Source of the DNA: Alphaproteobacteria bacterium
Lineage (GTDB): Bacteria > Pseudomonadota > Alphaproteobacteria > CAAGCB01 > CAG-977
Assembly: GCA_045587165.1 (NCBI GenBank)
Contig: JAZNBT010000020.1
Coordinates: forward strand, 20,603-84,602
DNA: 64,000 bases
Direction of reading: 5' to 3'
Position numbers and translations under genes: made by a program. A model generated the notes under the pieces. The model searched no databases and was not told where the DNA came from. It worked only from the letters and a program-made list of their open reading frames with translations. Position 1 is the stretch's first letter. Every line of letters begins with the position of its first letter. This document shows, one piece after another, positions 19,615 through 48,212 of this stretch.

Positions 19615-21108
19615 ATGTCTGATTCGTATTCTTTGGCAGATAAAATTATCCGAAAAACGGATGAATTAAAATCCAAACGAGTTAATTTTGAAAGGCTGTG
19701 GCAGGAAATATCGGAGCTGGTTCTGCCTCGAAAAGCGGATTTTACGGTCAGGCAGAAAGTCGGTGCCGTTCGTACAAGAAAATTATTTGAAACGACGGCC
19801 GTTAATGCCGCCGAAATTTTAGCGGCGGGATTGCACGGTCTGATGACAAATTCAGCCGGAAAATGGTTTTCCCTGTCCGTTCCGAAATATAAAGACATGC
19901 CTGAAATTTCTGATTGGCTTGTTCAAGCGGAACAAATTATTGCGGATGAAATCATACGACCGAGCGCCGGTTTTGCAACGAATATTCATGAAGTATATTT
20001 GGATTTGGCCGTTTTGGGGACAGCCGGATTGTATGTCGGTTGGAATGAAGAAAAGCAGGGATTGTTTTTTCAGTCGCGTTTTTTGGGAGAGTTGTTCTTG
20101 GAAGAAAATGCGGTTGGACAAATCGATCAGGTCTACCGTGTTTTTAAAATGTCTTTGGATAAAATCGTTCGGACATGGGGAGAAGATGTTTTGCCCGAAA
20201 AAATAAGGGCCGTTTTCAAAACCGGAAATCAAACGGAACGGGAATATGAAATCATTCACGCCGTTTTCCCGAATGTTTTATATGAAAACGGCAGTGTTTT
20301 TCAAAAACCGATCAGTTCGGTATATGTTTTAAAAGAAGAAAAAACATTGCTGTTTTCCGGCGGTTTTGAGGAAATGCCTTTGTTTGTCGCGCGTTGGAGT
20401 AAAGCGTGTACCGAAATATACGGCCGTTCTCCAGCCGCGGCCGTGCTGCCGGATATAAAAATGATTCAGGAAATGATGAAAGAAACGATTATTGCCGCTC
20501 AGTTGGCCAATCGTCCGCCGCTTTTGGTCAGAGATGACGATCAGTTCTCTCCGGCGGCAACGGTGCCGGGCGGTATTATCCGTTATACCGGTGAAGCGCC
20601 GAAAGCTTTTATCGGCGGGGCTAATTCAAGCATCGGCTTGGAAATCATGAATGAAATCAGAAACAGAATCAAAACGGCGTTTTACAATGACCGATTGATC
20701 GGTGTCGATAATGTGCGGATGACTGCGACCGAAGTTTTGCAAAGAACGGAAGAAAAAATGCGTTTGTTGGGACCTGTGTTCGGTCGTTTGCAGACAGGGC
20801 TGTTGGGACCGATGATGAATCGGATTTTTGGATTGTTGGTACGGCACGGCAGAATGTCTTTACCGTCCGGAATTTCTTTTTCCGATGTCAGAATCGAATA
20901 TGTGTCCCCGTTGTCTTTGGCGCAAAGGCATTTGCAAGCCAGAGCCGTTATGCAGACGTTGGAATTGGCGGAGGAATTTTTAAAAATTCAGCCTGAAGCC
21001 GCAAATGTGTTCAATGTTCCGGAAGCGATCAGAAAAATCGGCGAAATGTACGGTGTCAGCGCTGCTTTGTTTAATGTCGGGGGTGAAGAAAAAATAAATG
21101 ACGGATGA
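19615..21108 (+). CDS. Phage portal / head-to-tail connector protein, podovirus (T7 gp8-like) type
   Basis: 497 aa. Size and position upstream of the scaffold and capsid genes, with acidic helical content typical of portals. Confidence 0.6.
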   Translation: MSDSYSLADKIIRKTDELKSKRVNFERLWQEISELVLPRKADFTVRQKVGAVRTRKLFETTAVNAAEILAAGLHGLMTNSAGKWFSLSVPKYKDMPEISDWLVQAEQIIADEIIRPSAGFATNIHEVYLDLAVLGTAGLYVGWNEEKQGLFFQSRFLGELFLEENAVGQIDQVYRVFKMSLDKIVRTWGEDVLPEKIRAVFKTGNQTEREYEIIHAVFPNVLYENGSVFQKPISSVYVLKEEKTLLFSGGFEEMPLFVARWSKACTEIYGRSPAAAVLPDIKMIQEMMKETIIAAQLANRPPLLVRDDDQFSPAATVPGGIIRYTGEAPKAFIGGANSSIGLEIMNEIRNRIKTAFYNDRLIGVDNVRMTATEVLQRTEEKMRLLGPVFGRLQTGLLGPMMNRIFGLLVRHGRMSLPSGISFSDVRIEYVSPLSLAQRHLQARAVMQTLELAEEFLKIQPEAANVFNVPEAIRKIGEMYGVSAALFNVGGEEKINDG

Positions 21109-21391
21109 GGTTAAAAAAAGAAAAATCGGCAAGGCGCTGAGTTTGGTTCAAGCTTATAAAGCTGTTTTTTTATCTGAAAACGGGCAGATCGTTTTACGGG
21201 ATTTGGCCGATAAATGTCATATGCTGTCTCCGGTAACGGATGTGTCGAATCCGAACGGGTTTTCCGCCGCAAGTGCTTTTTACGACGGGAAACGGGCAGC
21301 TTTTCTGGACATTGTGAAAATGTCCGCTTGCGATGAGCAAAAGCTTGTCGCGTTATTGCAAGAAACTGAAAGGAATAAAAATGAATTATGA
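21098..21391 (+). CDS. Phage-module hypothetical protein
   Basis: 97 aa. The start overlaps the portal stop (ATGA coupling). Confidence 0.45.
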   Translation: MTDEVKKRKIGKALSLVQAYKAVFLSENGQIVLRDLADKCHMLSPVTDVSNPNGFSAASAFYDGKRAAFLDIVKMSACDEQKLVALLQETERNKNEL

Positions 21392-21947
21392 TTTGTCCAT
21401 GCCGCGGGAAGACTTTTCCGGCGATATGATTAAAGAAGTTATTGATGAGGACGCTTTTGAAGAGTTTAAAAGTTTGTCCGAAGAGTTGCGGTTGTCCGAA
21501 AAACAGTCGCAGGGAATTTGGGATTGGATCGTTGAAGGTGCTTTGCGGTTCGTAGACGATCTGAATGTAAAATCACGGGAATATTGTGCTGAAACCGAAA
21601 GTCGGTTGCGCAATGTTTACGGACGGGATTTTGAAGCAAAACAAAAAGCCGCGCAAAATCTGATTCGAAAATACGGCGGAGAAGAATTGGCGGATTTTTT
21701 GAAAGACAGCGGTATCGGAAATTGTCGTGAAATCGTTACTTTCCTGATTAAGCTGGCCGATGCGGCCGGCGAAGATCGCGGATTGGTCGGAGAAAAGTCG
21801 TCCGTTTTATCTTCCGAAGAAAAAATCAAAGCGGAAATCGCCAGATTGATGGCTGTGCCGGCCTATATGCAGGCCGGACACCCCGAACATGAAACAACGG
21901 TTCAGCAGGTGTATCGTCTCAGAAAACGATTGTTCGGTGAAGAATGA
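21381..21947 (+). CDS. Putative capsid scaffolding protein (gp9-like)
   Basis: Acidic helical protein between the portal and capsid genes. The M at 21381 with RBS GAAAGGA is preferred over the listed 21333 start. Confidence 0.45.
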   Translation: MNYDLSMPREDFSGDMIKEVIDEDAFEEFKSLSEELRLSEKQSQGIWDWIVEGALRFVDDLNVKSREYCAETESRLRNVYGRDFEAKQKAAQNLIRKYGGEELADFLKDSGIGNCREIVTFLIKLADAAGEDRGLVGEKSSVLSSEEKIKAEIARLMAVPAYMQAGHPEHETTVQQVYRLRKRLFGEE

Positions 21948-21972
21948 TCGTCTTTTGAAAACGAAACAAAGC

Positions 21973-21998
21973 GCTCCGTTCCGAACGGGGCTTTTTTT
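21973..21998 (+). terminator. Intrinsic terminator after the scaffold gene
   Basis: Stem gctccgt / acggggc followed by TTTTTTT. Confidence 0.5.
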
Positions 21999-22025
21999 AT
22001 ATTCAAAAAATGAAAGAGGAAAATT

Positions 22026-22925
22026 ATGAGCACACAAATCACAACTTCGTTTGTTAATCAATACAGTTCCAATATTCAGGCGTTGGTTCAGCAGAAAGGA
22101 TCCAAATTGCGCGATTTGGTCGGTTTTGAATCCGTGCGGGGAAAAGGAATGTTCATCGATCAGATCGGTCAGGTCGCCGCCGTTAAAAAAACAACGCGTC
22201 ATGCCGACACGCCGCAGACAGACACGCCTCATAAACGTCGTAATTTAAAATTGGATACGTATCATTGGGCCGATTTGATCGATAATGACGATAAAGTCAG
22301 AATGTTGATCGATCCCGCCAGCGATTATGCCAATGCCGCCGCTTGGGCGATGGGGCGCGCGATTGATGAAGCGATCGTTACGGCGGCTTTGGGGACGGCA
22401 TATACCGGTGAAACAGGTTCTATTCCCGTTGATTTGCCGTCGACACAAGTCGTTGATGCCGATTGTACGTCAAAATTTACATTTGATAAGTTGCGCGAAG
22501 TCAAGCGTATGTTCGATAAATGTGACGCCCCCAGCGAAGGACGCGTGATTGTTTTGTCCGCTCAGCAGCTGGACGACTTATTAAGTGAAACAAAGGTGAC
22601 GTCGGCCGATTATGCTTCTGCCAAGGCGTTGGTTCGCGGGGAGCTGGATACGTTTATGGGATTTAAGTTCGTTCAGTTGAATGCGAAAAACAGTTCCGGC
22701 GGTTTGATTTTGTCCGACGTAACGTCAACGGGCGATGCCGTGATCGGACGATCCTGTTTCGCTTTTCAGTCCGACGGTCTTAAGCTGGGGATCGGCCAGG
22801 ATATCGTTGGAAAAATTACGGAACGCGACGATAAATGTTTTGCAACGCAGGTCTATTACGAAATGTCGATCGGCGCCGTACGTATGCAGGAAGAACTGGT
22901 CGTTAAAATCAACTGTAAAGAGTAA
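22026..22925 (+). CDS. Major capsid protein (T7 gp10-like)
   Basis: 299 aa. RBS AAAGAGGAAAA. Position between the scaffold and tail-tubular genes, followed by a strong terminator as in T7 (T-phi analogue). Confidence 0.6.
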   Translation: MSTQITTSFVNQYSSNIQALVQQKGSKLRDLVGFESVRGKGMFIDQIGQVAAVKKTTRHADTPQTDTPHKRRNLKLDTYHWADLIDNDDKVRMLIDPASDYANAAAWAMGRAIDEAIVTAALGTAYTGETGSIPVDLPSTQVVDADCTSKFTFDKLREVKRMFDKCDAPSEGRVIVLSAQQLDDLLSETKVTSADYASAKALVRGELDTFMGFKFVQLNAKNSSGGLILSDVTSTGDAVIGRSCFAFQSDGLKLGIGQDIVGKITERDDKCFATQVYYEMSIGAVRMQEELVVKINCKE

Positions 22926-22938
22926 ATATTCTTTGAAG

Positions 22939-22968
22939 GCGGCAGGACACGTTTCTGCCGCTTTTTTT
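22939..22968 (+). terminator. Strong intrinsic terminator after the capsid gene
   Basis: 7-bp GC-rich stem gcggcag / ctgccgc with a 9-nt loop, followed by TTTTTTT. Confidence 0.65.
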
Positions 22969-22988
22969 ATTCCGTAAAGGAGGAAAAT

Positions 22989-23546
22989 ATGACTTCCATT
23001 GTTGCCGTTTGTAACAGGGCTTTATCTAAAATAGGTGACGAATTGATCATTACGTCCGTGGACGATGATACAAAACCCGCCCGGTATTGCAAAGCGCTGT
23101 ATGAAGATACGCGCGATTTTGTTTTAAGGTCTTATCCGTGGCGGTTTGCCTTGAAACGTTATGTTCTGGCGCCGTTAAAAGAAAAGCCGCTGTTCGGGTA
23201 CGATTATCAGTTTGTTGTACCGTCCGATTGTTTGCGTGTTTGGAAAACAAGTAATCAACAACGTTATCAGGTCGAAGGCAGGCATATTTTGGCGGACCGA
23301 AATTCTTTTTCTTTTATCGGTATTTCCAGAATAGAAGACGCCACTTTGTTTGATCCGATGTTCGTCGAGGCGCTTGCGCTGCGTTTGGCTGCGGAATTGG
23401 CCGTTCCTTTGACCGCGTCGGTTTCTTTAAAAGAAAATCTGGTGAAAGAATATCAGCAGTTTGTTCAACAGGCAAAAACAGCCTCCGCCATGGAAGGCGT
23501 TCAAGATGTTTATGTGCCGCAAGGATGGCTGGAGGCCAGAGTGTAA
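22989..23546 (+). CDS. Tail tubular protein A (T7 gp11-like)
   Basis: 185 aa. The N-terminal pattern VCNRALSKIGDELIITSVDDD...YPWRFALKRYVLAPL parallels T7 gp11 ([20 protein letters not shown]...RGWTFNIEEGITLLP). Confidence 0.6.
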   Translation: MTSIVAVCNRALSKIGDELIITSVDDDTKPARYCKALYEDTRDFVLRSYPWRFALKRYVLAPLKEKPLFGYDYQFVVPSDCLRVWKTSNQQRYQVEGRHILADRNSFSFIGISRIEDATLFDPMFVEALALRLAAELAVPLTASVSLKENLVKEYQQFVQQAKTASAMEGVQDVYVPQGWLEARV

Positions 23547-25549
23547 TGTCTTATGCCACTGCTTTGGTCAGATTTAATATCGGTGAAATTTCAGAGTTGA
23601 TGAGCGGACGTGTCGATACAGAAGAATATAAAGGCGCTTGTAAAATTTTGAAAAACTTTATTCCGTCCGTTCAAGGGCCCGTTTTCAGGCGCGGCGGTAC
23701 GCGCTTCGTCGCACAAACAAAATATCACGATAAGAAATCCAGACTTTTTTCTTTTCAATTTTCGGCGGAGCAATCTTACCTGTTGGAATTCGGAGATAAA
23801 TACGTACGCGTTTTTTATCATCGTAATCCGATCATTGATGAAAATGAAGCTCCTGTGGAAATAGCCATGCCGTATACGCACAACGATCTGGATAAGCTGT
23901 ATTTTTCACAATCGGGCGATGTTGTTTATATTGCTCATCCGGATTTTCCGTTAAGAACGGTTACGCGTTATTCTCAGACTGACTGGCGAACGCAAGAAGT
24001 GCAAATGACGGACGGTCCTTATCTGCCCGTTCATACCGGAGATATTTCTTTAACGCCTTCCGCAACGACGGGAAGTATTACCATTACGGCTTCAGATGAT
24101 GTTTTTGTTGCGTCCGATGTCGGTCGTCATGTCCGGATTATGCAACCAAACAATCCGAACGTTCAATGTGGAGCGGCTAAAATTACGGGTTTTAAAGATG
24201 CGCGTAATGTCAGTGCGACGGTATTTGGTGATTTTCCTTTTTTAAACACGACGGCGTCCAAATCATGGAGATTGGGTGTTTTCTCAAAAACAACAGGGTA
24301 TCCGGCCGTTGTTTCGTTTTTTGAACAAAGGCTTGTTTTGGGAAAAGGAAACGGCGTTTACGGATCGAAGATCGGACAATACGAAATTTTTTCGCCGACA
24401 TCGGCAAATGCGGCCGTAACATCGGAGTACGGTTACGGTTATGAGTTGTCTTCGGATCAGATAAATGATGTATGCTGGTTGTCTTCCGGTCGAGTATTGG
24501 CAATCGGAACGGTAGGAGCGGATTTCACTTTGGAAACCGTCGGTGGCGAGGGATCAATACCCATGAGCGTTAAAGTTCAACGCCACTCGACCTTCGGAAG
24601 CGAAACCGTCGCACCGGTGAAAGTCGGCGGCACGACGCTGTTCGTTCAGCATTATGGCAGAAAACTTCGCGCCTTTATGTATGACAGCAATTCCGACGGC
24701 TATGTCGCCAGAGATTTAACAACGTTGGCTTCTCATATAACATATGGCGGTATTAAAGAAATGGCTTTGCAGCAGGAACCCGTGCCGGTCATTTGGTGCG
24801 CGTTGAAAAACGGTTCTTTAGCCGGATTGACATACGAGGAGGCGGAATCCGTCGAGGCGTGGCATTCTCACGAACTGTCGGGAGCGTTCGTAGAGAGCAT
24901 TGTAACGCTGCCTTCGGAAAACGGCGGGAATGACGAATTGTTTTTGCTGGTTCGTCGGAATATTAACGGCGAAATAAAGCGTTATATCGAAGTTATGGAA
25001 ACAGGTATCGAGGAAAACGCCGAAGATTCGCAGGAATGTTTCTTTGTGGACAGCGGATTGTCATATCACGGAAAAAAAGTTTCTCGGGTTGCGGGGTTGG
25101 ATCATTTGGAAGGGGAAACGGTCGTCGTCTTGGCCGACGGGGCCGTTCAAACGGAAAAAATCGTTCAAAACGGTATCATCGATTTGGATACGCCCGCCTG
25201 TGTCGTACATGCGGGGTTGCCCTTTACTTCCGTTTTACAGACGATGCCGCTGGCCGGCGTCGGACACGACGGAATGTCCGAAGGATCGTCCAAACGTATC
25301 TCCGGTTTGTTGGTTCGTCTTTATAAAACGTTGGGGCTTTCCATCGGATCGTCGGAACACGTCGAAAAACAAAGTTTTCGAAATTTTTACGATCCGATGA
25401 ATTCACCTCCCGCGTTGTTTTCGGGCGATAAAAAGGTTTCGTTCAGCGCCGGATGGGGGCGTCTTTCCGATATCAGAATTGAACAGGATCAACCGTTGCC
25501 GTTGACGATTCTGGGTGTTTTTCCGTTGATTTCAATAAACAGAATATAA
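23546..25549 (+). CDS. Tail tubular protein B (T7 gp12-like) nozzle protein
   Basis: About 667 aa from the TAATG-coupled start at 23546 (listed 23525). Size, position after the gp11-like gene and beta-rich composition. Confidence 0.5.
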   Translation: MSYATALVRFNIGEISELMSGRVDTEEYKGACKILKNFIPSVQGPVFRRGGTRFVAQTKYHDKKSRLFSFQFSAEQSYLLEFGDKYVRVFYHRNPIIDENEAPVEIAMPYTHNDLDKLYFSQSGDVVYIAHPDFPLRTVTRYSQTDWRTQEVQMTDGPYLPVHTGDISLTPSATTGSITITASDDVFVASDVGRHVRIMQPNNPNVQCGAAKITGFKDARNVSATVFGDFPFLNTTASKSWRLGVFSKTTGYPAVVSFFEQRLVLGKGNGVYGSKIGQYEIFSPTSANAAVTSEYGYGYELSSDQINDVCWLSSGRVLAIGTVGADFTLETVGGEGSIPMSVKVQRHSTFGSETVAPVKVGGTTLFVQHYGRKLRAFMYDSNSDGYVARDLTTLASHITYGGIKEMALQQEPVPVIWCALKNGSLAGLTYEEAESVEAWHSHELSGAFVESIVTLPSENGGNDELFLLVRRNINGEIKRYIEVMETGIEENAEDSQECFFVDSGLSYHGKKVSRVAGLDHLEGETVVVLADGAVQTEKIVQNGIIDLDTPACVVHAGLPFTSVLQTMPLAGVGHDGMSEGSSKRISGLLVRLYKTLGLSIGSSEHVEKQSFRNFYDPMNSPPALFSGDKKVSFSAGWGRLSDIRIEQDQPLPLTILGVFPLISINRI

Positions 25550-25992: not shown

Positions 25993-26157
25993 ATGGGAAA
26001 TGTCAAAGAAGGAGTTACCATTTCCGCCGGTTTGACGGCTCCGGCCTGGATGCCGATTTTTAATGAATGGGTCGGCTGTTTAATCGGTATCGCCACGTTA
26101 ACGTATATTTGTGTAAAAATCTATGTACTGTTGTATCGTTCGGGAGCTTCCGAATGA
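25993..26157 (+). CDS. Putative holin (54 aa, single TM) not present in the ORF track
   Basis: MGNVKEGVTISAGLTAPAWMPIFNEWVGCLIGIATLTYICVKIYVLLYRSGASE with RBS GAAGGAGA. Its stop overlaps the endolysin ATG (ATGA at 26154). Confidence 0.5.
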   Translation: MGNVKEGVTISAGLTAPAWMPIFNEWVGCLIGIATLTYICVKIYVLLYRSGASE

Positions 26158-26612
26158 TTTCAAAAAAAGGCATTGATTTAATAAAAGCTTTCGAAGGCTT
26201 TGCTTCTTTGGAATATACGTGTGTCGCCGGCAAAAGGACAATCGGTTACGGCCATGTATTGGGACCCGATGAAAAATATGTTTGCGGTGTGTGCGAACGT
26301 GAAGCGGAAATTTTGCTGATGCGGGATTTGGATATGGCGGAGAAAGCGGTCGAGGATTTGGTTGAAGTACCTTTATCGGATTACCAGAAAGATGCCTTGG
26401 TCAGTTTTGTTTTTAACATCGGAATCAGGGCGTTTGAAAAATCCACTTTGTTAAAAAAACTCAATGAAGGCGGTTATGATCAGGTACCTAAACAGTTACA
26501 GCGTTGGATCTATGTCAACGGTCGCCCTTGCGACGGATTGATGCGTCGCAGGAAAGCGGAAGCCGGACTGTTTGTAAAATCGACGGGACGGAAAGGTCCC
26601 GTTTTTTCATGA
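26154..26612 (+). CDS. Endolysin, GH24 phage lysozyme (T4 lysozyme family)
   Basis: LIKAFEG catalytic Glu region and TIGYGH motif. The true start is the internal ATG at 26154 rather than the listed 26067. Confidence 0.85.
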   Translation: MISKKGIDLIKAFEGFASLEYTCVAGKRTIGYGHVLGPDEKYVCGVCEREAEILLMRDLDMAEKAVEDLVEVPLSDYQKDALVSFVFNIGIRAFEKSTLLKKLNEGGYDQVPKQLQRWIYVNGRPCDGLMRRRKAEAGLFVKSTGRKGPVFS

Positions 26613-30065: not shown

Positions 30066-31529
30066 TTATTTGGGCGCACGGCCTTTTGTCGCGACGATTT
30101 TGATTGTGTGCGTGAAAACATTTTTGTCCTTGACGTCGGCTTGCGGGACGAATTGAATAACGGCTGTTCCTTCTTTCCGAACGGAAAAACGTCGGCTTAA
30201 CCAACTTTCTTCACGGGCGGTTTGCGCCGACAGCGGAGTTAAAACAAAAGAGCCGTTGCTTGACAGAATACCTGCCGAATCACGGACATTCAGTTGATAG
30301 TCAGTGTTTTGTATATACATATGTCCGCCTTTGCGTGTTGTTTTTGTTTCATGCAAAGGAGTGTAAACCGTCAGCGTCAGTATATCTCCGACCATAACGG
30401 GAACGGCGCTGTTTTCATGGCTTAATGTCAAATGGATAAAACGGGGGTCCGACGGTCTGAAATACAAAGCGGCGATGGCCTGTTCTTCTTGAGGAACGGG
30501 AGCCGGCGGATTTTTTCCCGTCAGGGCCGGATTTTTTTTACCCGCAGTTTTAATATCGATCCAAGCGGGCATGAACGGGTAAAAGGTTTTGTATCTGTTA
30601 TCAAAGGCGTCTTTTTGAATAAATTGCATAAAAGACGTTTCTTCAATCATTTGTTTCGGCGGCAACGGCATTTCCTGCCGTATGTCGAACAAAGTCGTTT
30701 CTTGCGGATCCATTGCCGGTTTCAGCCAAAACGGTCTGAATTTTTCCAGATAAGCCTTTTGCAACGGAGACAGTTGTTTTTCCGATTCTGTTAAAAGCTG
30801 TTTGATCCGTGCGAATTTTTTCTTTTCTTTTTTCTGATCCGTTTTTTTTATGCTTAAATCGGCTAGCAGCCAAGCTTGAAGAAAATCATCCCGATCGGCG
30901 TAAAAACGCCCTAAATTATAACAAGCGTTGATGTTTTTTTTCAGAACGGCCTTTTTTAGAAGTTCTTCAGCTTTTTTTTCATCTTTTTTCACTCCGATTC
31001 CGAATCTGTAATACAAACCGAGCGTATTCATCGCTTTGGAATCTTCTTTGTCGGCCGCTTTTTGAAAATAAAAAGCCGCCGTTTTGAAATTTATGTCTGT
31101 TCCTTGTCCTTCCTGATGCAGCAAACCTAATCGAAAAGCTGCCGCCGTGTCGCCGCGTTCGGCATTCCCGCGTAAAGAATGAACATACATTGCACCGGAA
31201 AACCCGCGAATTTCTGCATGCAATCGATCAATCATCCCCAGATTGTCAAGTTGAGATAAGTCTCCTTTATAAAGACCGTTTAAGAAAGGCTGATAGGAAA
31301 TATTTTTTTTGTCTTCTTTTTTTTGCATCAAAGAGCAAATCCGGACGGCATAGGCCGCGGCCTGTTGCGTTTTTTCGTATTTTTTTAAAATGCGTAACGC
31401 TTCGTCGCAGTTGCCTGCGTTAAAAGCTTCTATGCCGACATCAAAAGAATCCCGCTCAATGGTTTGGGCGGCGGCGTCAATGTAGAAAAAAGGCAGGACG
31501 GCCAAAGAAAACAAAACCGATAATTTCAT
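30066..31529 (-). CDS. Secreted Sel1-repeat protein with a ~200-aa C-terminal domain of unknown function
   Basis: Signal peptide MKLSVLFSLAVLPFFYIDAAAQT and multiple Sel1 repeats (AAFRLGLLHQEGQG..., NTLGLYYRFGIGV...). The C-terminal region has no recognisable motif. Confidence 0.68.
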   Translation of the reverse strand: MKLSVLFSLAVLPFFYIDAAAQTIERDSFDVGIEAFNAGNCDEALRILKKYEKTQQAAAYAVRICSLMQKKEDKKNISYQPFLNGLYKGDLSQLDNLGMIDRLHAEIRGFSGAMYVHSLRGNAERGDTAAAFRLGLLHQEGQGTDINFKTAAFYFQKAADKEDSKAMNTLGLYYRFGIGVKKDEKKAEELLKKAVLKKNINACYNLGRFYADRDDFLQAWLLADLSIKKTDQKKEKKKFARIKQLLTESEKQLSPLQKAYLEKFRPFWLKPAMDPQETTLFDIRQEMPLPPKQMIEETSFMQFIQKDAFDNRYKTFYPFMPAWIDIKTAGKKNPALTGKNPPAPVPQEEQAIAALYFRPSDPRFIHLTLSHENSAVPVMVGDILTLTVYTPLHETKTTRKGGHMYIQNTDYQLNVRDSAGILSSNGSFVLTPLSAQTAREESWLSRRFSVRKEGTAVIQFVPQADVKDKNVFTHTIKIVATKGRAPK

Positions 31530-32248
31530 GGTTTCGCTTTTTCAATGAAATCCGGCGCCAGATTTTGAAAGATATTTTCAAATTTTTTTTGTTTTTGAAT
31601 GCTTTCCTGCCAATGTGCCGCCGTCCACTCGTCCGGTTTGATCGATCCCGCCCCGTTTTTATAAATAACGGTTAAGGCTATTTTGGCGTCGATATTCCCT
31701 AGCAATGCGGCTTGTTTATAAAATTTAACGGCTTTTTCTATGTCTTTTTCCACATTTTCACCGTTTTCATACCATCGCGCCAGCATGATTAAAGCTTCCG
31801 GATCGCCGTTTTTTGCGGCTTTTTCGGCGTATTCGATTCCCTTTTCGATATCTTGTACGACATTTTCCCCGTAAATGTATAACAATGCCAACGTCATTTG
31901 AGCCGGCGCATAATCCGCCTGCGCCGCTTTTTCATAATAATCCAAAGCTTTAGGAATATTTACGGGCATCCCTTTTCCCGCGAAATTCATCGCCCCCAAA
32001 GCAAAGGAGGCCTCAGGAATATTCATTACGTCCGCTTGTGCGAAATAAGTTGTCGCCTGTTGATAATCCTCCTGTTCATAAAAGATTAAAGCTTGTTCCA
32101 AAGGATTACGGGACAGATCGGCAGGCTGTCTGTTTAAAAACAAAATCAGTGTAATTAAAAGCGTCGCTCCGATAATTCCCAGAGCTTTATAAAGAGAAAT
32201 CCGTTCTTTTTTCTGCATGTTTATATTCCTTGTTTTGCGGACTTTCAT
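31526..32248 (-). CDS. Membrane-anchored Sel1-repeat protein
   Basis: N-terminal TM anchor (ALGIIGATLLITLILFL). Sel1 repeats (ALGAMNFAGKGMPVN..., LALLYIYGENVVQD..., LARWYENGENVEKD...). Confidence 0.68.
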   Translation of the reverse strand: MKVRKTRNINMQKKERISLYKALGIIGATLLITLILFLNRQPADLSRNPLEQALIFYEQEDYQQATTYFAQADVMNIPEASFALGAMNFAGKGMPVNIPKALDYYEKAAQADYAPAQMTLALLYIYGENVVQDIEKGIEYAEKAAKNGDPEALIMLARWYENGENVEKDIEKAVKFYKQAALLGNIDAKIALTVIYKNGAGSIKPDEWTAAHWQESIQKQKKFENIFQNLAPDFIEKAKP

Positions 32249-32352
32249 CTGTTTGCGCCAGTATAAACGGTTAAACGTTTTTTAAAAGTAAAAAGATTGA
32301 AAAAAACACTGTTTTCTGTTAATCCTGAACATTGTTTTATGAGGAGCGTTTC

Positions 32353-33744
32353 ATGTCTTTTCTTCATCGCGAACAAATACGGTCATTTCATTTTACCCGT
32401 TATTTTTTCAACGAAGAAACAAAAACGGCGCATTTGTATTATTCGTTTAACGATGAGGCCCTGTCATTTGAAGAAACAATATGTTTCCGTCAAGCGCCGA
32501 TGTTGAATGACGAAAAACGTCGCCGTGCTTTTGATGCATGTTTGCGTTTATTGCATTTGGCGGCGGGAATCAGTTATTACAAGTTGTTTGTTCCCGATGA
32601 AATCAAAATCGATTCAACCGAATTAACCAGAGAAGAGGCCGATTTTTTCAATTTGTTTTATACCGACGGATTGGGGGAATTTTCCTATAGGAACAATGTT
32701 TCTTTGAATATCCGTTTCCCTTTTTCTTTGACGGCCGTTCGAAAGCCGACGAATATTAATTTGAAAAAACAAATCGTTGTTCCCGTAGGCGGCGGCAAGG
32801 ATTCGATTGTTTCCATTGAAACTTTAAAATCCGCCGGATATTCTCCCGTGTTGTTTTCGGTGGGGCAACCTCGTCCGATTAAAGAAACGATTGAAATATC
32901 GGGGCTTCCTTCAATTTTGGTGACGCGCCGGATATCGCCCGATCTGATTGCATTGAACGAACAGGCCGCATTTTTCGGGGCTTTGAACGGTCATGTTCCC
33001 GTTACGGGCATTATCGCGTTTATTTTAATGGCCGCCGCCGTTTTGTATGATTTTTCAGATGTCGCTCTGTCAAATGAGCGTTCCGCCAATATCGGCAATA
33101 CGGAAAAAGACGGCAGGATCGTCAATCATCAATGGAGTAAATCGCTGGAATTTGAAAAAGCGTTCCATGATCTGACGGTTTCCGTGTTGCCGGATTTTCA
33201 TTATTTTTCCTTGCTGCGTCCTTTGTCTGAATTGGCAATAGCGTCTTTGTTCGCCAAAACACAAAAATACGACCGGATTTTCACCAGTTGCAACAAAGCG
33301 TTCAAACTGGACGAACGTAAACGTTTTGACCGTTGGTGCGCCGACTGCGATAAATGCCGCTTTGTTTTTTTGGCTTTGGCGCCTTTTATGGAAAGGGAAA
33401 ATCTGATACGTCTTTTCGGACATAATTTGTTGGACGATCTTTCTCAGACGGCGGGCTTTGAAGAATTGTTGGGACTTTCGGCGTTTAAACCGTTCGAATG
33501 TGTCGGTGAAATTGAAGAGTCGGTATTGGCTTTTCTGATGTTGGCCGATCACCCTGTCTGGCAAAAAGATGCCGTTATTAACGCTTTGACGGACAGAGTG
33601 CGCCGGAATTGGCAGGCTCGGCAAAAAAGTTTATTTGAAAAAATATTTACGTTGACGGATAATCATTTGATACCGCAGGAGTACGCAGATGTTATTGGAA
33701 TCTTTAAGAAACAGGCCGGTTACGGTGTGGGGAAACGGGATTGA
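32353..33744 (+). CDS. PP-loop (adenine-nucleotide alpha-hydrolase-like) protein with a C-terminal Cys cluster; candidate ATP-dependent MurL-like epimerase
   Basis: GGGKDS motif (VVPVGGGKDSIVS) resembling the SGGxDS PP-loop, and CADCDKC downstream. Its 3' end overlaps the start of the orphan MurD-like ligase by 56 nt. The listed start is 32332; an alternative M lies at 32353. Confidence 0.55.
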   Translation: MSFLHREQIRSFHFTRYFFNEETKTAHLYYSFNDEALSFEETICFRQAPMLNDEKRRRAFDACLRLLHLAAGISYYKLFVPDEIKIDSTELTREEADFFNLFYTDGLGEFSYRNNVSLNIRFPFSLTAVRKPTNINLKKQIVVPVGGGKDSIVSIETLKSAGYSPVLFSVGQPRPIKETIEISGLPSILVTRRISPDLIALNEQAAFFGALNGHVPVTGIIAFILMAAAVLYDFSDVALSNERSANIGNTEKDGRIVNHQWSKSLEFEKAFHDLTVSVLPDFHYFSLLRPLSELAIASLFAKTQKYDRIFTSCNKAFKLDERKRFDRWCADCDKCRFVFLALAPFMERENLIRLFGHNLLDDLSQTAGFEELLGLSAFKPFECVGEIEESVLAFLMLADHPVWQKDAVINALTDRVRRNWQARQKSLFEKIFTLTDNHLIPQEYADVIGIFKKQAGYGVGKRD

Positions 33745-34966
33745 GGGCCGCGCCGCATCCATTTTTTTAGAAAAACGCAACTGTACCGTAAACGTTGTGG
33801 AAGATCCGGAAACGATACCGTTTTCGGGGGTTATCGTCAAATCGCCCGGAATCAGCATGTATCGGCATGAAATTAAAATGGCGCAACAATACGGGGCGTA
33901 CTTTACTTCCGGAACCAATTTGTTTATGGAAGCCGCTTTTTTACAGCCCGAATATCGACCGCTTTTGATCGGCGTTACGGGAACAAAAGGAAAATCGACG
34001 ACGTCTTCTTTGATCGCGCATTTGTTGCGAGCCCAAGGAAACAGGGTTGCTTTATGCGGTAATATCGGCGATCCCGCAATCGCTTATGCGGATGACTTGG
34101 GAAATTATGATATTGTCGTTGTGGAAATGTCCAGTTATCAATGTGCCGATTTACAATATTCTTTCGATATTTCCGTTATATTAAACCTTTATCCCGAACA
34201 CATTGACTGGCATAAAACACACGAACTGTATTTTCGCGATAAATTGAATATTCTGAAACATCAAACGCCCGAACAGACGACGATATTGAACGCTCAGGAC
34301 GCTTTGACGGTTACGCATGTTAAAAATCCGAGGAATCCTGTTTATTTTGATGCGTTGAATACCGTTCATGATATGGGGGATTACTTCTATAAAGGGGGGA
34401 AAAAACTGTTTAGAACGGATGTCGTTCCTTTGCGCGGCGAACATAATCTGAAAAATGTCAGTGCGGCCTTGACGGTGGTTGATCAGGTCAGCGGATCTTT
34501 TGATGGTTGTGAGGAAGCTTTGAAAACGTTTGAAGCGTTGCCTCACAGATTGCAGACAGTCGCCTTTAAAAACGGAGTGACATATATTGATGACAGTATT
34601 TCGACAACACCGGAAACGGCTATAGCGGCTTTAAAGTCTTTCGGTTATTCCAATATTGTTTTAATCGCCGGCGGCTTTGACAGAGAACAGGATTATTCGG
34701 CTTTGGCTTCTTTTGTCGCCCATGGAGGCGCTTCGGCTGTCGTCACATTGCCGCAGACGGGACGTCGGTTGGCTGAAGCTATAGAAGAGGAAGGCGGTAA
34801 AGCCGTTACGGCAAAAAATATGAAAGACGCTGTTCAAAAGGCGTCTTCTTTAGCCCGTTTCGGTGATATTGTGTTGCTTTCGCCGGCCGCCCCCAGTTAT
34901 GGAGAATATAAGAACTTTCAGGAACGCGGCTTGGATTTTTTGAAGTGTGTTGACGAGTTGGAATAA
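33689..34966 (+). CDS. Orphan MurD-like Mur ligase (UDP-MurNAc-L-Ala:glutamate ligase family; candidate MurD2)
   Basis: N-terminal Rossmann-like domain (VTVWGNGIEGRAASIFL) and Mur-ligase P-loop GVTGTKGKSTT. Not embedded in a dcw cluster. Coupled to the PP-loop gene. Confidence 0.72.
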   Translation: MLLESLRNRPVTVWGNGIEGRAASIFLEKRNCTVNVVEDPETIPFSGVIVKSPGISMYRHEIKMAQQYGAYFTSGTNLFMEAAFLQPEYRPLLIGVTGTKGKSTTSSLIAHLLRAQGNRVALCGNIGDPAIAYADDLGNYDIVVVEMSSYQCADLQYSFDISVILNLYPEHIDWHKTHELYFRDKLNILKHQTPEQTTILNAQDALTVTHVKNPRNPVYFDALNTVHDMGDYFYKGGKKLFRTDVVPLRGEHNLKNVSAALTVVDQVSGSFDGCEEALKTFEALPHRLQTVAFKNGVTYIDDSISTTPETAIAALKSFGYSNIVLIAGGFDREQDYSALASFVAHGGASAVVTLPQTGRRLAEAIEEEGGKAVTAKNMKDAVQKASSLARFGDIVLLSPAAPSYGEYKNFQERGLDFLKCVDELE

Positions 34967-35554
34967 TCAGCGTCTGGATTTTAAAGCTGTTTGAATTGTT
35001 CCGTCGTCCAGATAGTCCAATTCGCCGCCGACGGGGATGCCCTGCGCCAGAGAAGAAATTTTAACGGGCAAGTCTCTGAAGCGTTCGGTAATGTAATGGC
35101 CGGTCGTTTGTCCGTCTACTGTGGCGGGCAGGGCAAGAATTAGTTCTGAAACTCCGGTTTGTCGCAGACGCCGTTCCAAAACGGGCAGGTGTAATTCGTC
35201 AGGTCCCGTCCCTTCGATGGCGGATAAAAGTCCGTTTAAAACATGATAACGTCCTTTAAATGCGGCGCTGCGTTCAATCGCCCATAAGTCTGCAATGTCT
35301 TGAACGATGCAAATGACATTTTCATCTCTTCGTTCGTCTCTGCAAATGCTGCAGGGGGATTGAGAATCCAAATTGCCGCAAATCGGGCAGACCTGTATGT
35401 GATCAATGACGTTCTGAAGTGCATTAACCAAAGGAATTAATTGTGTCTCCTTTTTTTTGATCAGATGCAGAATAACGCGTCTTGCCGATCGTCTGCCGAA
35501 ACCGGGCAATCGTGAAAAAAGACGGATCAGAATATCAATTTCCGTTTCCTGCAC
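34967..35554 (-). CDS. recR: Recombination protein RecR
   Basis: Zn finger CPICGNLDSQSPCSICRD and a Toprim domain. Classic dnaX-ybaB-recR order. Confidence 0.9.
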   Translation of the reverse strand: MQETEIDILIRLFSRLPGFGRRSARRVILHLIKKKETQLIPLVNALQNVIDHIQVCPICGNLDSQSPCSICRDERRDENVICIVQDIADLWAIERSAAFKGRYHVLNGLLSAIEGTGPDELHLPVLERRLRQTGVSELILALPATVDGQTTGHYITERFRDLPVKISSLAQGIPVGGELDYLDDGTIQTALKSRR

Positions 35555-35568
35555 AAACCGTTCTCCGG

Positions 35569-35877
35569 TCAGAAAGGCAGTTTCATTCCGGGAGGCAGAA
35601 TCCCGCTTAATCCTTGATTCATTTCGGAAACGACCTTTTGTTGCGCATCGTTAAACGCGGCGACCAACAAATCTTCCAGAACGGCGGCGTCTTCGGCAAC
35701 GATCAGCGACGGGTCGATTTTGACGCGGCGAACTTCGTTTTTTCCCGTCATGACGACTTCCACCAATCCGCCGCCGGCGGATCCGGTAATTTCCGTTTGT
35801 GCCAACTTTTCCTGTTCGGCCATTAATTTGGCTTGCATTTGTTGAGCTTGTTTCATTATTTCATTAAAGTCGGTCAT
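35569..35877 (-). CDS. ybaB: Nucleoid-associated protein YbaB/EbfC
   Basis: 102 aa with the conserved MMKQAQQMQ start and size typical of the family. Located between dnaX and recR. Confidence 0.85.
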   Translation of the reverse strand: MTDFNEIMKQAQQMQAKLMAEQEKLAQTEITGSAGGGLVEVVMTGKNEVRRVKIDPSLIVAEDAAVLEDLLVAAFNDAQQKVVSEMNQGLSGILPPGMKLPF

Positions 35878-42698: not shown

Positions 42699-43442
42699 AT
42701 GAAATCGGCATTTCTTTTTGTTTTTCTGTTTTGTTCTCAGGCTTTCGCTTCTTTTGATGACGGGCAGAAAGCTTTTGTTCAAGGAAATTACGGTAAAGCT
42801 TTCGAATATTGGCGACAGGCTGCGGATGACGGCGATTTGACCGCTCAACGCAACATTGCTCACTTGTATCGTTGGGGAAAAGGCGTGCCGCAGGATTTAA
42901 TGCAGGCCGCTTTTTGGTATTATACGGCGGCAAAAGGCGGATCGGATACGGCACAGTATAATTTAGGGGTGATGTATTTACGCGGAGAGGGCTTGCCCCG
43001 AAACGAAGAGGAAGGCATTATCTGGTTGGAGCGCGCGGCAGAGCAAAACAATGCAAAGGCAAAGAAAAAACTGGCGCATTTGAAGGTGGAAATCGAACAC
43101 GAATTGCCGTCGGAAGACGAGATTTTGACACCGGTGAAACCGAAAACGGCCAAAGTATCGGAAAAAGCCCCCGTAAACATGGTGACGGTCAGTAAAAAAG
43201 AACCGCCTTTGTACGCTCATCTGGCTTCCTATTATACACAGGAAACTTTGGAAAAAGGATGGCGGGAATTAAAACAGACTTTTCCCGAACTGGCGCGTTT
43301 GAAAACGCTTGAAACGCAAGTGACATTGCCGGAAAAAGGAAAATATATCCGTTTGTATATTAAAGGGAATGCCGCCGACATACGCAATGTATGCGGCCGG
43401 TTAAACGAAAAAAAACAATATTGCCTGATCAGCTATCCGTAG
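42699..43442 (+). CDS. Secreted Sel1-repeat protein with a C-terminal SPOR-like domain
   Basis: Signal peptide, Sel1 repeats (IAHLYRWGKGVPQD, LGVMYLRGEGLPRN), a linker, then YAHLASYYTQETLEKGWRELKQ...KYIRLYIKGNAADIRNVCGRL with a SPOR-like pattern. Confidence 0.68.
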   Translation: MKSAFLFVFLFCSQAFASFDDGQKAFVQGNYGKAFEYWRQAADDGDLTAQRNIAHLYRWGKGVPQDLMQAAFWYYTAAKGGSDTAQYNLGVMYLRGEGLPRNEEEGIIWLERAAEQNNAKAKKKLAHLKVEIEHELPSEDEILTPVKPKTAKVSEKAPVNMVTVSKKEPPLYAHLASYYTQETLEKGWRELKQTFPELARLKTLETQVTLPEKGKYIRLYIKGNAADIRNVCGRLNEKKQYCLISYP

Positions 43443-44609: not shown

Positions 44610-46067
44610 TTAAACTGTTAAAATTCCGCGCCAGAACAATAAGACGGCGATCAGCGAAATTAAAACCATCAAACCTGCAAGCCAAGTTTCTCGTGTGGTG
44701 AACATTTTTTCCTCCGGATTGTTTTCTTTGCGTGACCAGATAAAAACGGGAATTCCGATTGTCAGAAATAAAACGGCCATTAACAAATATTCCAGTCCGG
44801 CGGCATAAATCAGCCATAAAGCGTAGATCGATCCCAAAATGGAGCAGATCAATGCGCCGGATCTCGGAACGGCAGCCGTCGTCGGATATTCTCCGTCTTC
44901 ACAGATTTTCCACAGGTACGCCATACTTGATAAATAAGCCGGCAAAACCATGACACCCGTAATGGACAGCATGGTGTTCCATGCGTTGTTTGAAAAATAA
45001 ACCATTAAAATAGCCAACTGCATCAACAAACTGGTGACCCACAAAGATACGGACGGAGATTTATGTTCGTTTTCCGCCGCGAAAACCTTTGGGAAAGTAC
45101 CGTTTTGCGCCGCGGCAAACGGAATTTCCGCCGTAATCATCGTCCAGGCCAACCAACTGGCCAAAACGGCGATCAGCAACCCGATATTCATTAACCAGCT
45201 GCCCCATTTGCCGACAACGACTTCCAATACGCCGGCTGTCGACGGATTGGGTACTGCCGCCAATTCGGCCTGGCTCATAAAGCCGTAAGGCAGGACGGAT
45301 AACAGGACGTAAATTGTCAAACAGCCCAAAAAACCGATAAAAGTGGCTTTTCCTACTTCAGATTTGTTTTCGGCGCGGTCCGATAAAACGACGGCGCCTT
45401 CAATCCCGATGAAAGCCCATAACGTGACTAGCATGGTGCTTTTAACCTGTTCGGGGAGGGATCCCAATGCCGCATGACCGTGAGAAACGAGATTGCCCCA
45501 GAAATCGTCTTCGAATTGATGGATTTTAAATGCGAAAATCATAATCAAAATGAAGATGAACAAAGGCAAAATTTTAAATACGGTCGCGATTGTGTTGATA
45601 AAGCTGGCTTGTTGAACGCCGCGCAGTACGACGAAATTAAAAAACCAGATTAAAACCGATCCGCCGATAATGGAATAAAGATTGTTGCCGCCTGCGAAAT
45701 ACGGCGGAAAAAAATAATTTAAGGCGTCCATCGTGATGACGGCATAACCGACATTCCCGAAAATCTGACAAAGCCAATATCCCCAACCGATCGTAAATCC
45801 CATAAACGGTCCGAAACCTTCGCGGGCATACATGTAAATACCGGCGGTCAAATCGGGTTTGGCGTCCGATAAAATACGAAAGGAATTGGCCAGAAAATAC
45901 ATTCCGATACCGGTTATAACCCAAGCGATCAATACTGCCCCGACCGATGCGCCGGCTGCCATGTTTTGCGGCAGACTGTAGATGCCGCCGCCGATCATTG
46001 AACTGATGACGACACTGGCCAGTGCAATCAGTCCCAGTTTCTTGTTTGTGTTTTGTTGCTGTGCCAT
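44610..46067 (-). CDS. APC-family amino acid/polyamine antiporter (arginine:agmatine antiporter candidate, AaxC/AdiC-like)
   Basis: 485 aa, 12-13 TM, APC permease signature. Immediately downstream of the pyruvoyl-dependent arginine decarboxylase gene. Confidence 0.72.
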   Translation of the reverse strand: MAQQQNTNKKLGLIALASVVISSMIGGGIYSLPQNMAAGASVGAVLIAWVITGIGMYFLANSFRILSDAKPDLTAGIYMYAREGFGPFMGFTIGWGYWLCQIFGNVGYAVITMDALNYFFPPYFAGGNNLYSIIGGSVLIWFFNFVVLRGVQQASFINTIATVFKILPLFIFILIMIFAFKIHQFEDDFWGNLVSHGHAALGSLPEQVKSTMLVTLWAFIGIEGAVVLSDRAENKSEVGKATFIGFLGCLTIYVLLSVLPYGFMSQAELAAVPNPSTAGVLEVVVGKWGSWLMNIGLLIAVLASWLAWTMITAEIPFAAAQNGTFPKVFAAENEHKSPSVSLWVTSLLMQLAILMVYFSNNAWNTMLSITGVMVLPAYLSSMAYLWKICEDGEYPTTAAVPRSGALICSILGSIYALWLIYAAGLEYLLMAVLFLTIGIPVFIWSRKENNPEEKMFTTRETWLAGLMVLISLIAVLLFWRGILTV

Positions 46068-46128
46068 TTTAATGTCCTTTTAAACAAAAAAGCGGCATCG
46101 CTTTTATAAACGATACCGCTTTTGAAAA

Positions 46129-46710
46129 TTACAATTTAACGGGATCCGTTGTTTCAAAATTCAAGAAACCCAACGCCGTTAAACAATAACCGAAGCGTTG
46201 TGTAATGTTGATGTAATTGTGGAACAACTGGAATTCGCTGTGTTTTTCGACGCCGCGTATTTCCAATTCATGGTTTAAAGATTTGTTCAACCACATTTCC
46301 GCATGACCGCGGGCGATGTCATCATCTATATACGTCGGGAAATATTCGACGTATTCGGCAGCCCAACCGCCGATCAAATTATCGTCTTTGTCTTTTCCCC
46401 AACAAATGCCGACGCCGGTTGCAATTGCACGATGTTCGCTGCTGTCGGCACCGTTTCCGGCCATGATGACTTCCAAAACGGCACCGTGTTTGAAGTATTT
46501 CGTCACTTTGTCTACGGGGACGATGTTGTTGTACAATTCCGGCGGTAAGACGGAAGTATACGGGACAACGTTAAAATCCTGAATTTTCGCCTGAGATAAA
46601 GCCGAATCGTAACAAAACGTTTCAAAAGGCTGCGGCGGAATACCGTCGTCGGACTGACCTGCGCCGCCGGTGTGAAAAGCTAAAGTCGGATAGCGTGTTC
46701 CTAATAACAT
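46129..46710 (-). CDS. pdaD: Pyruvoyl-dependent arginine decarboxylase (PdaD/AaxB family)
   Basis: 193 aa. [14 protein letters not shown]...[26 protein letters not shown] aligns with the PdaD pattern [38 protein letters not shown], including a Thr-Ser cleavage dyad in the same place. Confidence 0.72.
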
Positions 46711-46919
46711 ATTTTTTTCTCCTGAATATTAATATAAAAAGAAGACATTCTTCCTTTTTCTCGAAAATAGTAGAAAAAAAACGTATTTGTTCCTAGATAG
46801 ACTTGTTCTTATAAATAATAATGTATCTATACGTTTTTATATATGCTGCTTGTTGTGTTTTTATTTTTATTTTTTTGTTTTATGTTTTTATTTATTTTAT
46901 TGAGTTTTGTGAGGATAAA

Positions 46920-48212
46920 ATGAAAAATATGAAATATAAACGAATGAAAGGCGTTCAAACTCTTTCATTTACATGTGCCGCCGTTTTGTTTTCTTTACCC
47001 GCTTCGGCTCAGCAGGTGCAAGAAGTTGAAATAATCGAACAGCTGGATGTTTTAACGATACAGTCGCAAATGAACAATAACGGCAAACTGTCGACTCGTT
47101 TAAAGAGCGCCGCGGATCGGTTGAATAATCACGTTGAAGGATTTGAAAAAGATTATAACGATTTTAAATCCATGCTGTCGAATGATTTCGGTCTGCAGTA
47201 TTCGATCGATGTTTCTTTTATGGGGCAAAAAGGCGTACCTTCCGGCGGTAAAACGGCAACGCAGAGTATTTATGCGCCGACGGTATCATGGCAGATGTTT
47301 AATGACGAAACATTCGGATCGGGAACGATCAACATGTCCTATACCGCAGTTCGTTATTGGGGAAACAAGGCGTCGAACATCGGTGATGATCTTTACTTGG
47401 CGAATGCGATCAACGATTATTCGACACCGTCAAACGCGATTGATCAGTTAAGCTATACGCACGCTTTGTTTAATAATAAGTTCTCCGTCACTCTCGGTCA
47501 GTATTCCATCGCCGATTTCGACGGGATGCAGTATGCTTCAAATCAGCAAACGGGATTTATTAACTACGCTCTGTCCCAAAACGGCAGTGAAACGTATCCG
47601 ATCGCCGGATTGGGGGCGTACATTCAGTTTAATCCGAATGACGAATGGTCTTTTACCGGCGGTTTTCAAAACGCTCGTAATGTAACGGGAGAAACATTGT
47701 CCGGCAAAGGATGGGGCGATCATCGATTTACGACATTCGGTTCGATTTCTTATACGCCGACGATCAACGGGCAAACGGGGCAATATTCTTTGTTGGTTTA
47801 TAATCAGCCGAACGTCGAAACGCAGCCGCAAAATACGACGGGTTGGTCCGTTAACATGTCGCAGAATTTAACGGAAAAATGGGGCGTCTTTGTACGCGCC
47901 AATGCCGCGACCGGCGATTCGATGCCGATAACGCAATCTTATGCCGTCGGCGGCGTTTTAAACGATCCGTTGGATCGTAATTCGTTGGATCAGATCGGGT
48001 TTGCCGTTGCTTATAACAAAGTCAGCAAAGACTACTTTGATTCTTCCGAACCTATGCGGCAATATGAAACCGTTGTCGAAACGTATTGGAATATCGGTAT
48101 TACGCAATTCTTTACGATTACGCCGGATATTCAGTTATATGTTCACCCCGCATCAAAACGAGACAGGGATTTCGGAACGGTATTCAGTTTACGCGGTACG
48201 TTTTTGTTGTAA
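46920..48212 (+). CDS. Outer-membrane porin candidate (AaxA-like), divergent from pdaD
   Basis: Signal peptide MKNMKYKRMKGVQTLSFTCAAVLFSLPASAQQ. Beta-strand-rich, with alternating aromatic/hydrophilic composition. RBS GAGGA before the ATG at 46920. The listed 46821 start lies in an AT-rich promoter region. Confidence 0.55.
   Translation: MKNMKYKRMKGVQTLSFTCAAVLFSLPASAQQVQEVEIIEQLDVLTIQSQMNNNGKLSTRLKSAADRLNNHVEGFEKDYNDFKSMLSNDFGLQYSIDVSFMGQKGVPSGGKTATQSIYAPTVSWQMFNDETFGSGTINMSYTAVRYWGNKASNIGDDLYLANAINDYSTPSNAIDQLSYTHALFNNKFSVTLGQYSIADFDGMQYASNQQTGFINYALSQNGSETYPIAGLGAYIQFNPNDEWSFTGGFQNARNVTGETLSGKGWGDHRFTTFGSISYTPTINGQTGQYSLLVYNQPNVETQPQNTTGWSVNMSQNLTEKWGVFVRANAATGDSMPITQSYAVGGVLNDPLDRNSLDQIGFAVAYNKVSKDYFDSSEPMRQYETVVETYWNIGITQFFTITPDIQLYVHPASKRDRDFGTVFSLRGTFLL

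Follow-up and report, generated by a model that had tools for sequence, protein, structure and literature searches.

A probable murL–murD2 pair for an alternative D-glutamate branch of peptidoglycan precursor synthesis in an uncultured alphaproteobacterium

An overlapping gene pair and the identity of its first gene

Within a 64-kb stretch of alphaproteobacterial DNA (64,000 nucleotides of contig JAZNBT010000020.1, hereafter the window), two open reading frames (ORFs) follow one another on the plus strand, which also carries every feature of the pair described below. The first, ORF-A (32353–33744), starts at an ATG, encodes 463 aa and matches the NCBIfam model NF041275 as well as the Pfam domains MurL_N and MurL_epimerase_C; the second, ORF-B (33689–34966), encodes 425 aa and matches TIGR01087 together with Pfam Mur_ligase_M and Mur_ligase_C. 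On the sequence evidence set out here, the two are very probably murL and murD2, the genes of the MurL/MurD2 branch, an alternative route to the D-glutamate of peptidoglycan precursors. The reference for this branch is the Xanthomonas oryzae pair MurL (XOO_1319) and MurD2 (XOO_1320); orthologues from Micromonospora and Salinispora have also been validated (Feng et al. 2017 as reviewed, PMC8788868, PMC5808125). The window pair is a new case of this already described system and not a new system, curated NCBIfam and Pfam models of MurL being in place. An earlier note on the same DNA had put forward the MurL/MurD2 assignment as a candidate, and it is now backed by the full-length NF041275 match, the Pfam MurL domains, a shared gene order and MurD2-type residues in the ligase.

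The longest version of ORF-A opens at a TTG (32332). The ATG at 32353 is backed by homologues that align from that methionine, and a 463-aa public database protein (P0001, NCBI data) is 100% identical to ORF-A, so the length of 464 aa given in the earlier note is corrected to 463 aa. The two genes share 56 nt (33689–33744) in different reading frames and are thus overlapping genes with no fusion; the earlier note had called them fused, whereas its 56-nt overlap and its 425-aa MurD-family ligase agree with the ORF list. In a relative (locus L081), a gene caller likewise gives a murL/murD2 pair, with a 47-nt overlap. Direct reading of the sequence places a Shine–Dalgarno motif GAGGAG (32341–32346) 6 nt ahead of the murL ATG and a second, AGGAG (33677–33681), within the 3′ end of murL, 7 nt ahead of the murD2 ATG at 33689. 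The pair is probably a two-gene operon with translational coupling.

Against NCBIfam, ORF-A gave one match at E ≤ 0.01, to NF041275, the UDP-N-acetyl-alpha-D-muramoyl-L-alanyl-L-glutamate epimerase model (E = 2.7e-141, 471 bits, profile positions 3–441 of 447). The Pfam annotation precomputed for P0001, the identical protein, and for all listed homologues consists of PF26299 and PF26298 (MurL_N and MurL_epimerase_C); a scan with a local Pfam copy, which evidently comes without these two models, returned no match for ORF-A. More than 8000 database clusters match ORF-A at E < 1e-5, and E-values of 1e-141 for ORF-A and 1e-92 put chance homology out of the question. ORF-A is about 40% identical to the MurL of Xanthomonas and Stenotrophomonas, a distance equal to that between Xanthomonas and the actinobacterial homologues from Solirubrobacterales.

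A 31-sequence MurL alignment (A1) was used to scan the GTDB species-representative collection for relatives, and the scan confirmed at least 593 of them; all locus statistics, for synteny as for invariant residues, refer to the best 80 of these loci. Across the 80 MurL sequences, Xanthomonas and Stenotrophomonas included, 52 residues are invariant, among them G146–D150, N212-G213-H214, N258-H259-Q260, S262-K263, C313, C329, C332, C335 and K379–G385. Several fall into recognizable motifs. A PP-loop variant, GGGKDS (G146–S151; 32788–32805), is invariant from G146 to D150 and has S151 in 79 of 80 sequences. It is followed by a four-cysteine motif, C313...C329-x2-C332-x2-C335 (33289–33357), with all four cysteines invariant, and then by KPFECVGE (33487–33510), in which K379–G385 are invariant and E386 is kept in 78 of 80. 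This last motif holds a fifth invariant cysteine, C383, which we infer to be a candidate catalytic residue.

Ligase fold and glutamate specificity

The AlphaFold2 (AF2) model of ORF-B (pLDDT 89.9) aligned over its whole length with ligand-bound (UMA-bound) MurD structures at TM-scores of 0.82–0.85 (Foldseek), and the modelling confirmed the predicted architecture of a three-domain Mur ligase, with a Rossmann-like N-domain, a P-loop middle domain and a C-domain. In the model the N-domain opens with GNGIEG (residues 15–20). The ATP-binding P-loop GTKGKSTT (G98–T105; 33980–34003) aligns to the P-loop of solved MurDs, and in alignment A2 residues T97 and T99–T105 are invariant and G98 is nearly so. 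The motifs on which the earlier note had relied, namely GGGKDS and CxxCxxC in ORF-A and GTKGKSTT and a Rossmann N-domain in ORF-B, are thus all present in the sequence or the AF2 model. The UDP-binding N-domain (residues 1–47; 33689–33830) is reduced in size: it is about 19 residues shorter than that of E. coli MurD, with residue 43 aligning to residue 62, and about 27 residues shorter than that of X. oryzae MurD2 as judged by the specificity glutamate (E170 versus E197). The TIGR01087 alignment of ORF-B begins only at profile position 65, and the AF2 model retains a small Rossmann-like N-domain.

We aligned the murL-adjacent ligases from 78 loci together with ORF-B (n = 79) and numbered the specificity positions by residue-by-residue alignment to chain 1e0d_A, the crystal numbering of E. 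coli MurD. The equivalents of the general catalytic residues K115, N138, E157, H183 and K198 are invariant in the linked ligases and kept in ORF-B, which thereby shares with canonical MurD the three-domain fold, the P-loop and the catalytic residues. The glutamate pocket is different. E170 (34196–34198) stands at the position of E. coli D182 and X. oryzae MurD2 E197, and is Glu in 78 of 79 linked ligases; I304 (34598–34600) replaces K319, a lysine in all three solved canonical MurDs aligned, and is Ile in 79 of 79; R332 (34682–34684) corresponds to K348 and to X. oryzae R358, with Arg in 77 of 78; and P402-S403-Y404 (34892–34900) corresponds to E. coli A414-S415-L416, with X. oryzae P433 and F435 at its two ends, Pro being found in 76 of 77 sequences and Phe or Tyr in 77 of 77. 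About 77 of the 79 linked ligases, among them those of Xanthomonas and Stenotrophomonas, share this set of residues. All five specificity positions of ORF-B (E170, I304, R332, P402 and Y404) are therefore MurD2-like, identical to the X. oryzae enzyme in the Glu, Arg and Pro and with Tyr where that enzyme has Phe; the canonical D-glutamate-pocket residues D182, K319 and K348 were not found in ORF-B in the alignment to 1e0d_A.

Published mutagenesis bears directly on these positions. The changes from the E. coli MurD residues to those of X. oryzae MurD2 are D182→E197, K348→R358, A414→P433 and L416→F435 (Ogasawara and Dairi, PMC8788868). The E197D substitution alone alters the stereospecificity of X. 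oryzae MurD2, the E197D/R358K double mutant switches completely to D-Glu, and K319T makes E. coli MurD accept L-Glu, with positions 182 and 348 setting the preference for the L or D form (PMC8788868). The predicted substrate of ORF-B is accordingly L-Glu, unlike that of canonical MurD.

One linked ligase is an outlier at these positions. In locus L028 (10552–11949, from an uncultured proteobacterium bin), the residues at E. coli positions 182, 321, 348 and 414 are C, S, V and A, as against E, T, R and P in the other linked ligases, and this enzyme may prefer another substrate.

Pairing across genomes and the surroundings of the locus

In 78 of the 80 loci, Xanthomonas and Stenotrophomonas included, the next gene after murL is MurD-like and has the same orientation, and the two loci that have no downstream ligase are short contigs ending just past murL. 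This gene order is common to loci of several phyla. No further Mur ligase came up in relaxed tblastn searches of the 10 kb on each side of the pair, run for all 80 loci, the pair is never embedded among murC, murE or murF genes in these loci and, beyond the closest relatives, murL and murD2 are the only window genes shared with the other loci. The constant pairing, the lack of a second Mur ligase nearby and the lack of any other shared neighbour indicate a self-contained two-gene module. In this the gene differs from canonical murD: murD2 lies outside the dcw cluster and always occurs together with murL.

Among the window ORFs of at least 150 aa, scanned for dcw, Mur ligase and murI genes, we found no dcw gene, no other Mur ligase, no murI and no D-amino-acid aminotransferase, in keeping with the earlier note, which had placed the ligase outside a dcw cluster. 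That note would also have counted a genome with a single murD against the assignment; a lone murD homologue is, however, expected for the pathway, and XOO_1320 is itself annotated as MurD in an organism without a D-Glu supply. Like the X. oryzae pair, the window pair consists of a full-length MurL homologue followed by a ligase, outside any dcw cluster. The sequences are more distant, MurL being about 40% and MurD2 about 35% identical to the Xanthomonas proteins. The window pair further differs in the shorter N-domain of its ligase and in the 56-nt overlap of its genes.

The hosts of the best 80 loci comprise about 40 Xanthomonadales/Lysobacterales (including Xanthomonas hortorum, X. vasicola and Stenotrophomonas maltophilia), about 27 Alphaproteobacteria (gut, rumen and faecal metagenome-assembled genomes (MAGs); Acetobacteraceae, Stellaceae and Emcibacter), three Solirubrobacterales, and one bin each of Sericytochromatia, Peribacteria and 'Holdemanella'. 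The closest GTDB representative among the matches listed, L001, is a human-gut MAG with 63% identity and the same synteny. The published alphaproteobacterial hosts of MurL/MurD2 are Devosia, Pelagibacterium and Parvularcula; the host of the window is an uncultured gut-type alphaproteobacterium of a lineage missing from the published MurL/MurD2 genus list, and the family clearly extends well beyond that list.

Pairs of murL and murD2 lie on contigs binned as Holdemanella biformis (L004; a Firmicute, with a MurL 52% identical to that of the window), Candidatus Peribacteria (L074; candidate phyla radiation) and Sericytochromatia (L048), so that either the contigs were mis-binned or the module has spread horizontally.

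Public names of family members are often wrong. The MurL relatives P0011, P0122, P0069 and P0089 are called 'endonuclease domain-containing protein' or 'hypothetical' by NCBI, one JGI record is named QueC, and the MurD2 relatives P0134, P0136 and P0161 are named 'UDP-N-acetylmuramoyl-L-alanine--D-glutamate ligase'. Outside Xanthomonadales, the pathway looks to be systematically mis-annotated.

Immediately around the pair, the 5′ neighbour is a divergent Sel1-repeat gene (31526–32248, minus strand) and the 3′ neighbour is a convergent recR, whose ORF end at 34967 abuts the stop codon of ORF-B. Other genes of the window include atpB/B'/a, tgt, recR-ybaB-dnaX, fabD-fabG-fabF, mltG, hisF/H, kdsB, rimO and cysK, and the genomic context of the pair is housekeeping. 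By comparison with Pfam calls in L081, Sel1-repeat proteins lie on both sides, two upstream on the minus strand (30066–32248) and one after mltG (42699–43442), an arrangement common only to the closest relatives L001–L003 and L010.

A scan for promoters and terminators over 31900–35700 gave counts near the shuffle expectation and no plus-strand site in the 104 nt upstream of murL. A sigma-70-like match, TTGAAA-17-GATAAT (10/12), lies at 33635–33663 in the 3′ end of murL, just 5′ of the murD2 ribosome-binding site; it may be due to chance, as regional promoter-like counts are only about 1.7 standard deviations above shuffles.

Elsewhere in the window, a basic amino acid/polyamine antiporter gene (44610–46067, minus strand; TIGR00905, 587 bits; 535 bits on the arginine–ornithine antiporter model) diverges from a porin gene (46821–48212, plus strand) that matches Chlamydia AaxA below the cutoff (NF051888, E = 1.7e-93), and together the two (44610–48212) resemble the chlamydial Aax arginine/agmatine system. 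Five consecutive plus-strand ORFs that gave no NCBIfam match (19615–25549) are followed by a lysozyme gene (26067–26612) matching the gene-transfer-agent endolysin BgtA (E = 5.6e-43), and a Phage_lysozyme gene occupies the corresponding upstream position in L081; the segment 19615–26612 may be a gene-transfer-agent or prophage remnant.

Predicted MurL fold, proposed pathway and alternatives

Reviews describe MurL as having no known or recognizable domains, and our literature search for a structure or mechanism paper on MurL returned reviews only. No solved relative of MurL emerged from sequence searches of the PDB: a single-sequence search gave only noise (beta-glucuronidase), and the sole match of a profile search aligned MurL 'vpvGGGkDs' with the TtuA PP-loop 'vavSGGKDS' (E = 0.018). 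The AF2 model of the window MurL (pLDDT 91.9, pTM 0.92) has QatC as its best Foldseek match (439 columns, E = 2e-5), and its Rossmann-like alpha/beta core superposes on PP-loop ATP pyrophosphatase members. GGGKDS lies where strand 1 of this core (141–144) passes through a loop into helix 1 (149–160), the canonical position of a PP-loop. We therefore predict that the MurL core is a QueC/Cap9/QatC-like PP-loop ATP pyrophosphatase, in agreement with the PP-loop fold guessed in the earlier note.

The likeness extends beyond the core. QatC has its PP-loop at residues 156–161 and a four-cysteine zinc site (C332/C352/C355/C358) that is conserved in QueC (PMC13376578), and MurL resembles QatC in overall architecture, with a variable N-terminal region, then the Rossmann-like core with its PP-loop, a C-x(n)-C-x2-C-x2-C motif after the core and a helical C-terminal region. 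The arrangement of C313, C329, C332 and C335 matches the QatC pattern and, by analogy, these cysteines are most likely a structural zinc site of the QueC type rather than a redox centre. The differences from QueC, QatC and Cap9 are also considerable: identity is about 13–15%, GGGKDS takes the place of SGGxDS, KPFECVGE is an extra invariant motif, and the substrate is a UDP-muramyl dipeptide and not a deazaguanine, with epimerization and hydrolysis instead of ligation to a nucleophile.

In the pathway that we propose, MurD2 (ORF-B) would use ATP to ligate L-Glu, and not D-Glu, onto UDP-MurNAc-L-Ala, as orthology and the residue signature suggest; MurL would then use ATP to convert the ligated L-Glu to D-Glu, after which MurE would take over. 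MurL has been reported to epimerize in one direction, to the D-Glu form, with one ATP used and AMP formed, and the authors of that work hypothesized an adenylation of the alpha-carboxylate. Published enzyme assays of MurL cover the X. oryzae, Micromonospora and Salinispora enzymes. PP-loop enzymes AMPylate a carboxyl or keto oxygen, releasing pyrophosphate and later AMP (PMC13376578), and a QueC-like PP-loop fold fits the published ATP-to-AMP chemistry of MurL. Judging from the predicted fold, MurL may activate the terminal Glu by adenylating its alpha-carboxylate, with release of pyrophosphate, so that, as in QueC, QatC and Cap9, the chemistry would open with carboxylate AMPylation and close with release of AMP. 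Adenylation would acidify the C-alpha proton and permit deprotonation followed by reprotonation from the opposite face, and hydrolysis of the activated species would free AMP and make the reaction irreversible. C383 might, speculatively, act as the acid/base or as a thioester-forming residue.

Several points weigh against the MurL/MurD2 assignment or the mechanism attached to it. The 471 bits of ORF-A fall short of the 700-bit equivalog cutoff of NF041275, a model named 'MurL_Xanthmoales' and labelled Xanthomonadales-specific, and ORF-A counts as a member of the MurL family and not as a curated equivalog. With 309.7 bits, ORF-B exceeds the curated cutoff (211.95 bits) of TIGR01087, the model for canonical, D-Glu-adding MurD, which means that sequence family alone cannot tell MurD from MurD2. 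The PP-loop of MurL is a variant in which Gly replaces the first Ser of SGGxDS, and the putative adenylation target, zinc site and role of C383 are drawn from a predicted structure and from analogy.

Among other explanations, the pair could be a relative of MurL/MurD2 that operates beside a canonical MurI/MurD route and makes a modified UDP-sugar peptide or a glutamylated molecule outside peptidoglycan, in line with the fallback of the earlier note, a pair that may decorate a UDP-sugar or peptide. The N-terminal UDP-binding domain, shorter than in E. coli MurD, would be in keeping with such a role, and the divergent specificity positions of the L028 ligase hint that the scaffold can diverge. 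We nevertheless consider it improbable, given that the window pair retains all the catalytic and specificity residues common to the Xanthomonas and Stenotrophomonas pairs, that the whole MurD fold, N-domain included, is predicted and resembles UMA-bound MurD, and that the genomic context is housekeeping.

The score on TIGR01087 could also be taken to mean that ORF-B is an ordinary D-Glu MurD moved out of the dcw cluster, with ORF-A an unrelated QueC-like enzyme, for example of deazapurine metabolism. This is very unlikely: the sole NCBIfam match of ORF-A is MurL and no QueC family, the two genes stay together in nearly all loci and in several phyla, and ORF-B has MurD2 residues in place of D182, K319 and K348, so that it is not filed as a D-Glu ligase despite its hidden Markov model score. 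Finally, the resemblance to QatC and Cap9 might suggest that ORF-A is an anti-phage defence component conjugating a small molecule to a partner protein, an idea with next to no probability given a PADLOC scan negative for both proteins, no QatA/B/D or CD-NTase partners, a Mur ligase as the sole conserved neighbour, and about 15% identity to QatC versus a full-length match to MurL.

Returning to MurL/MurD2, we can extend the assignment into a more specific proposal, which we hold only tentatively and think more likely wrong than right. MurL might be a QueC/QatC-type PP-loop enzyme repurposed as an ATP-driven one-way epimerase, in which, after adenylation, C383 serves either as an acyl-capturing thioester or as the stereo-inverting acid/base, bringing alpha-proton chemistry of the kind seen in non-ribosomal peptide synthetases to a PP-loop scaffold, in a pathway that reaches far beyond the published genus list. 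If true, this would be an outcome not previously assigned to the PP-loop superfamily. The predicted QueC-like fold in any case offers a testable frame, consisting of the PP-loop, the zinc motif and C383, for the mechanism of MurL.

The known biology of the pathway is unchanged by this locus, and the finding is of practical use for annotation and for the known distribution of the pathway. Published MurL/MurD2 hosts form a short list with Xanthomonadales pathogens at its centre, and this has been used to promote the pathway as a target for narrow-spectrum antibiotics; the same module occurs in uncultured gut- and rumen-associated Alphaproteobacteria and in several other phyla. With ligase and epimerase both misnamed, metabolic reconstructions of these MAGs would wrongly report a missing source of D-Glu.

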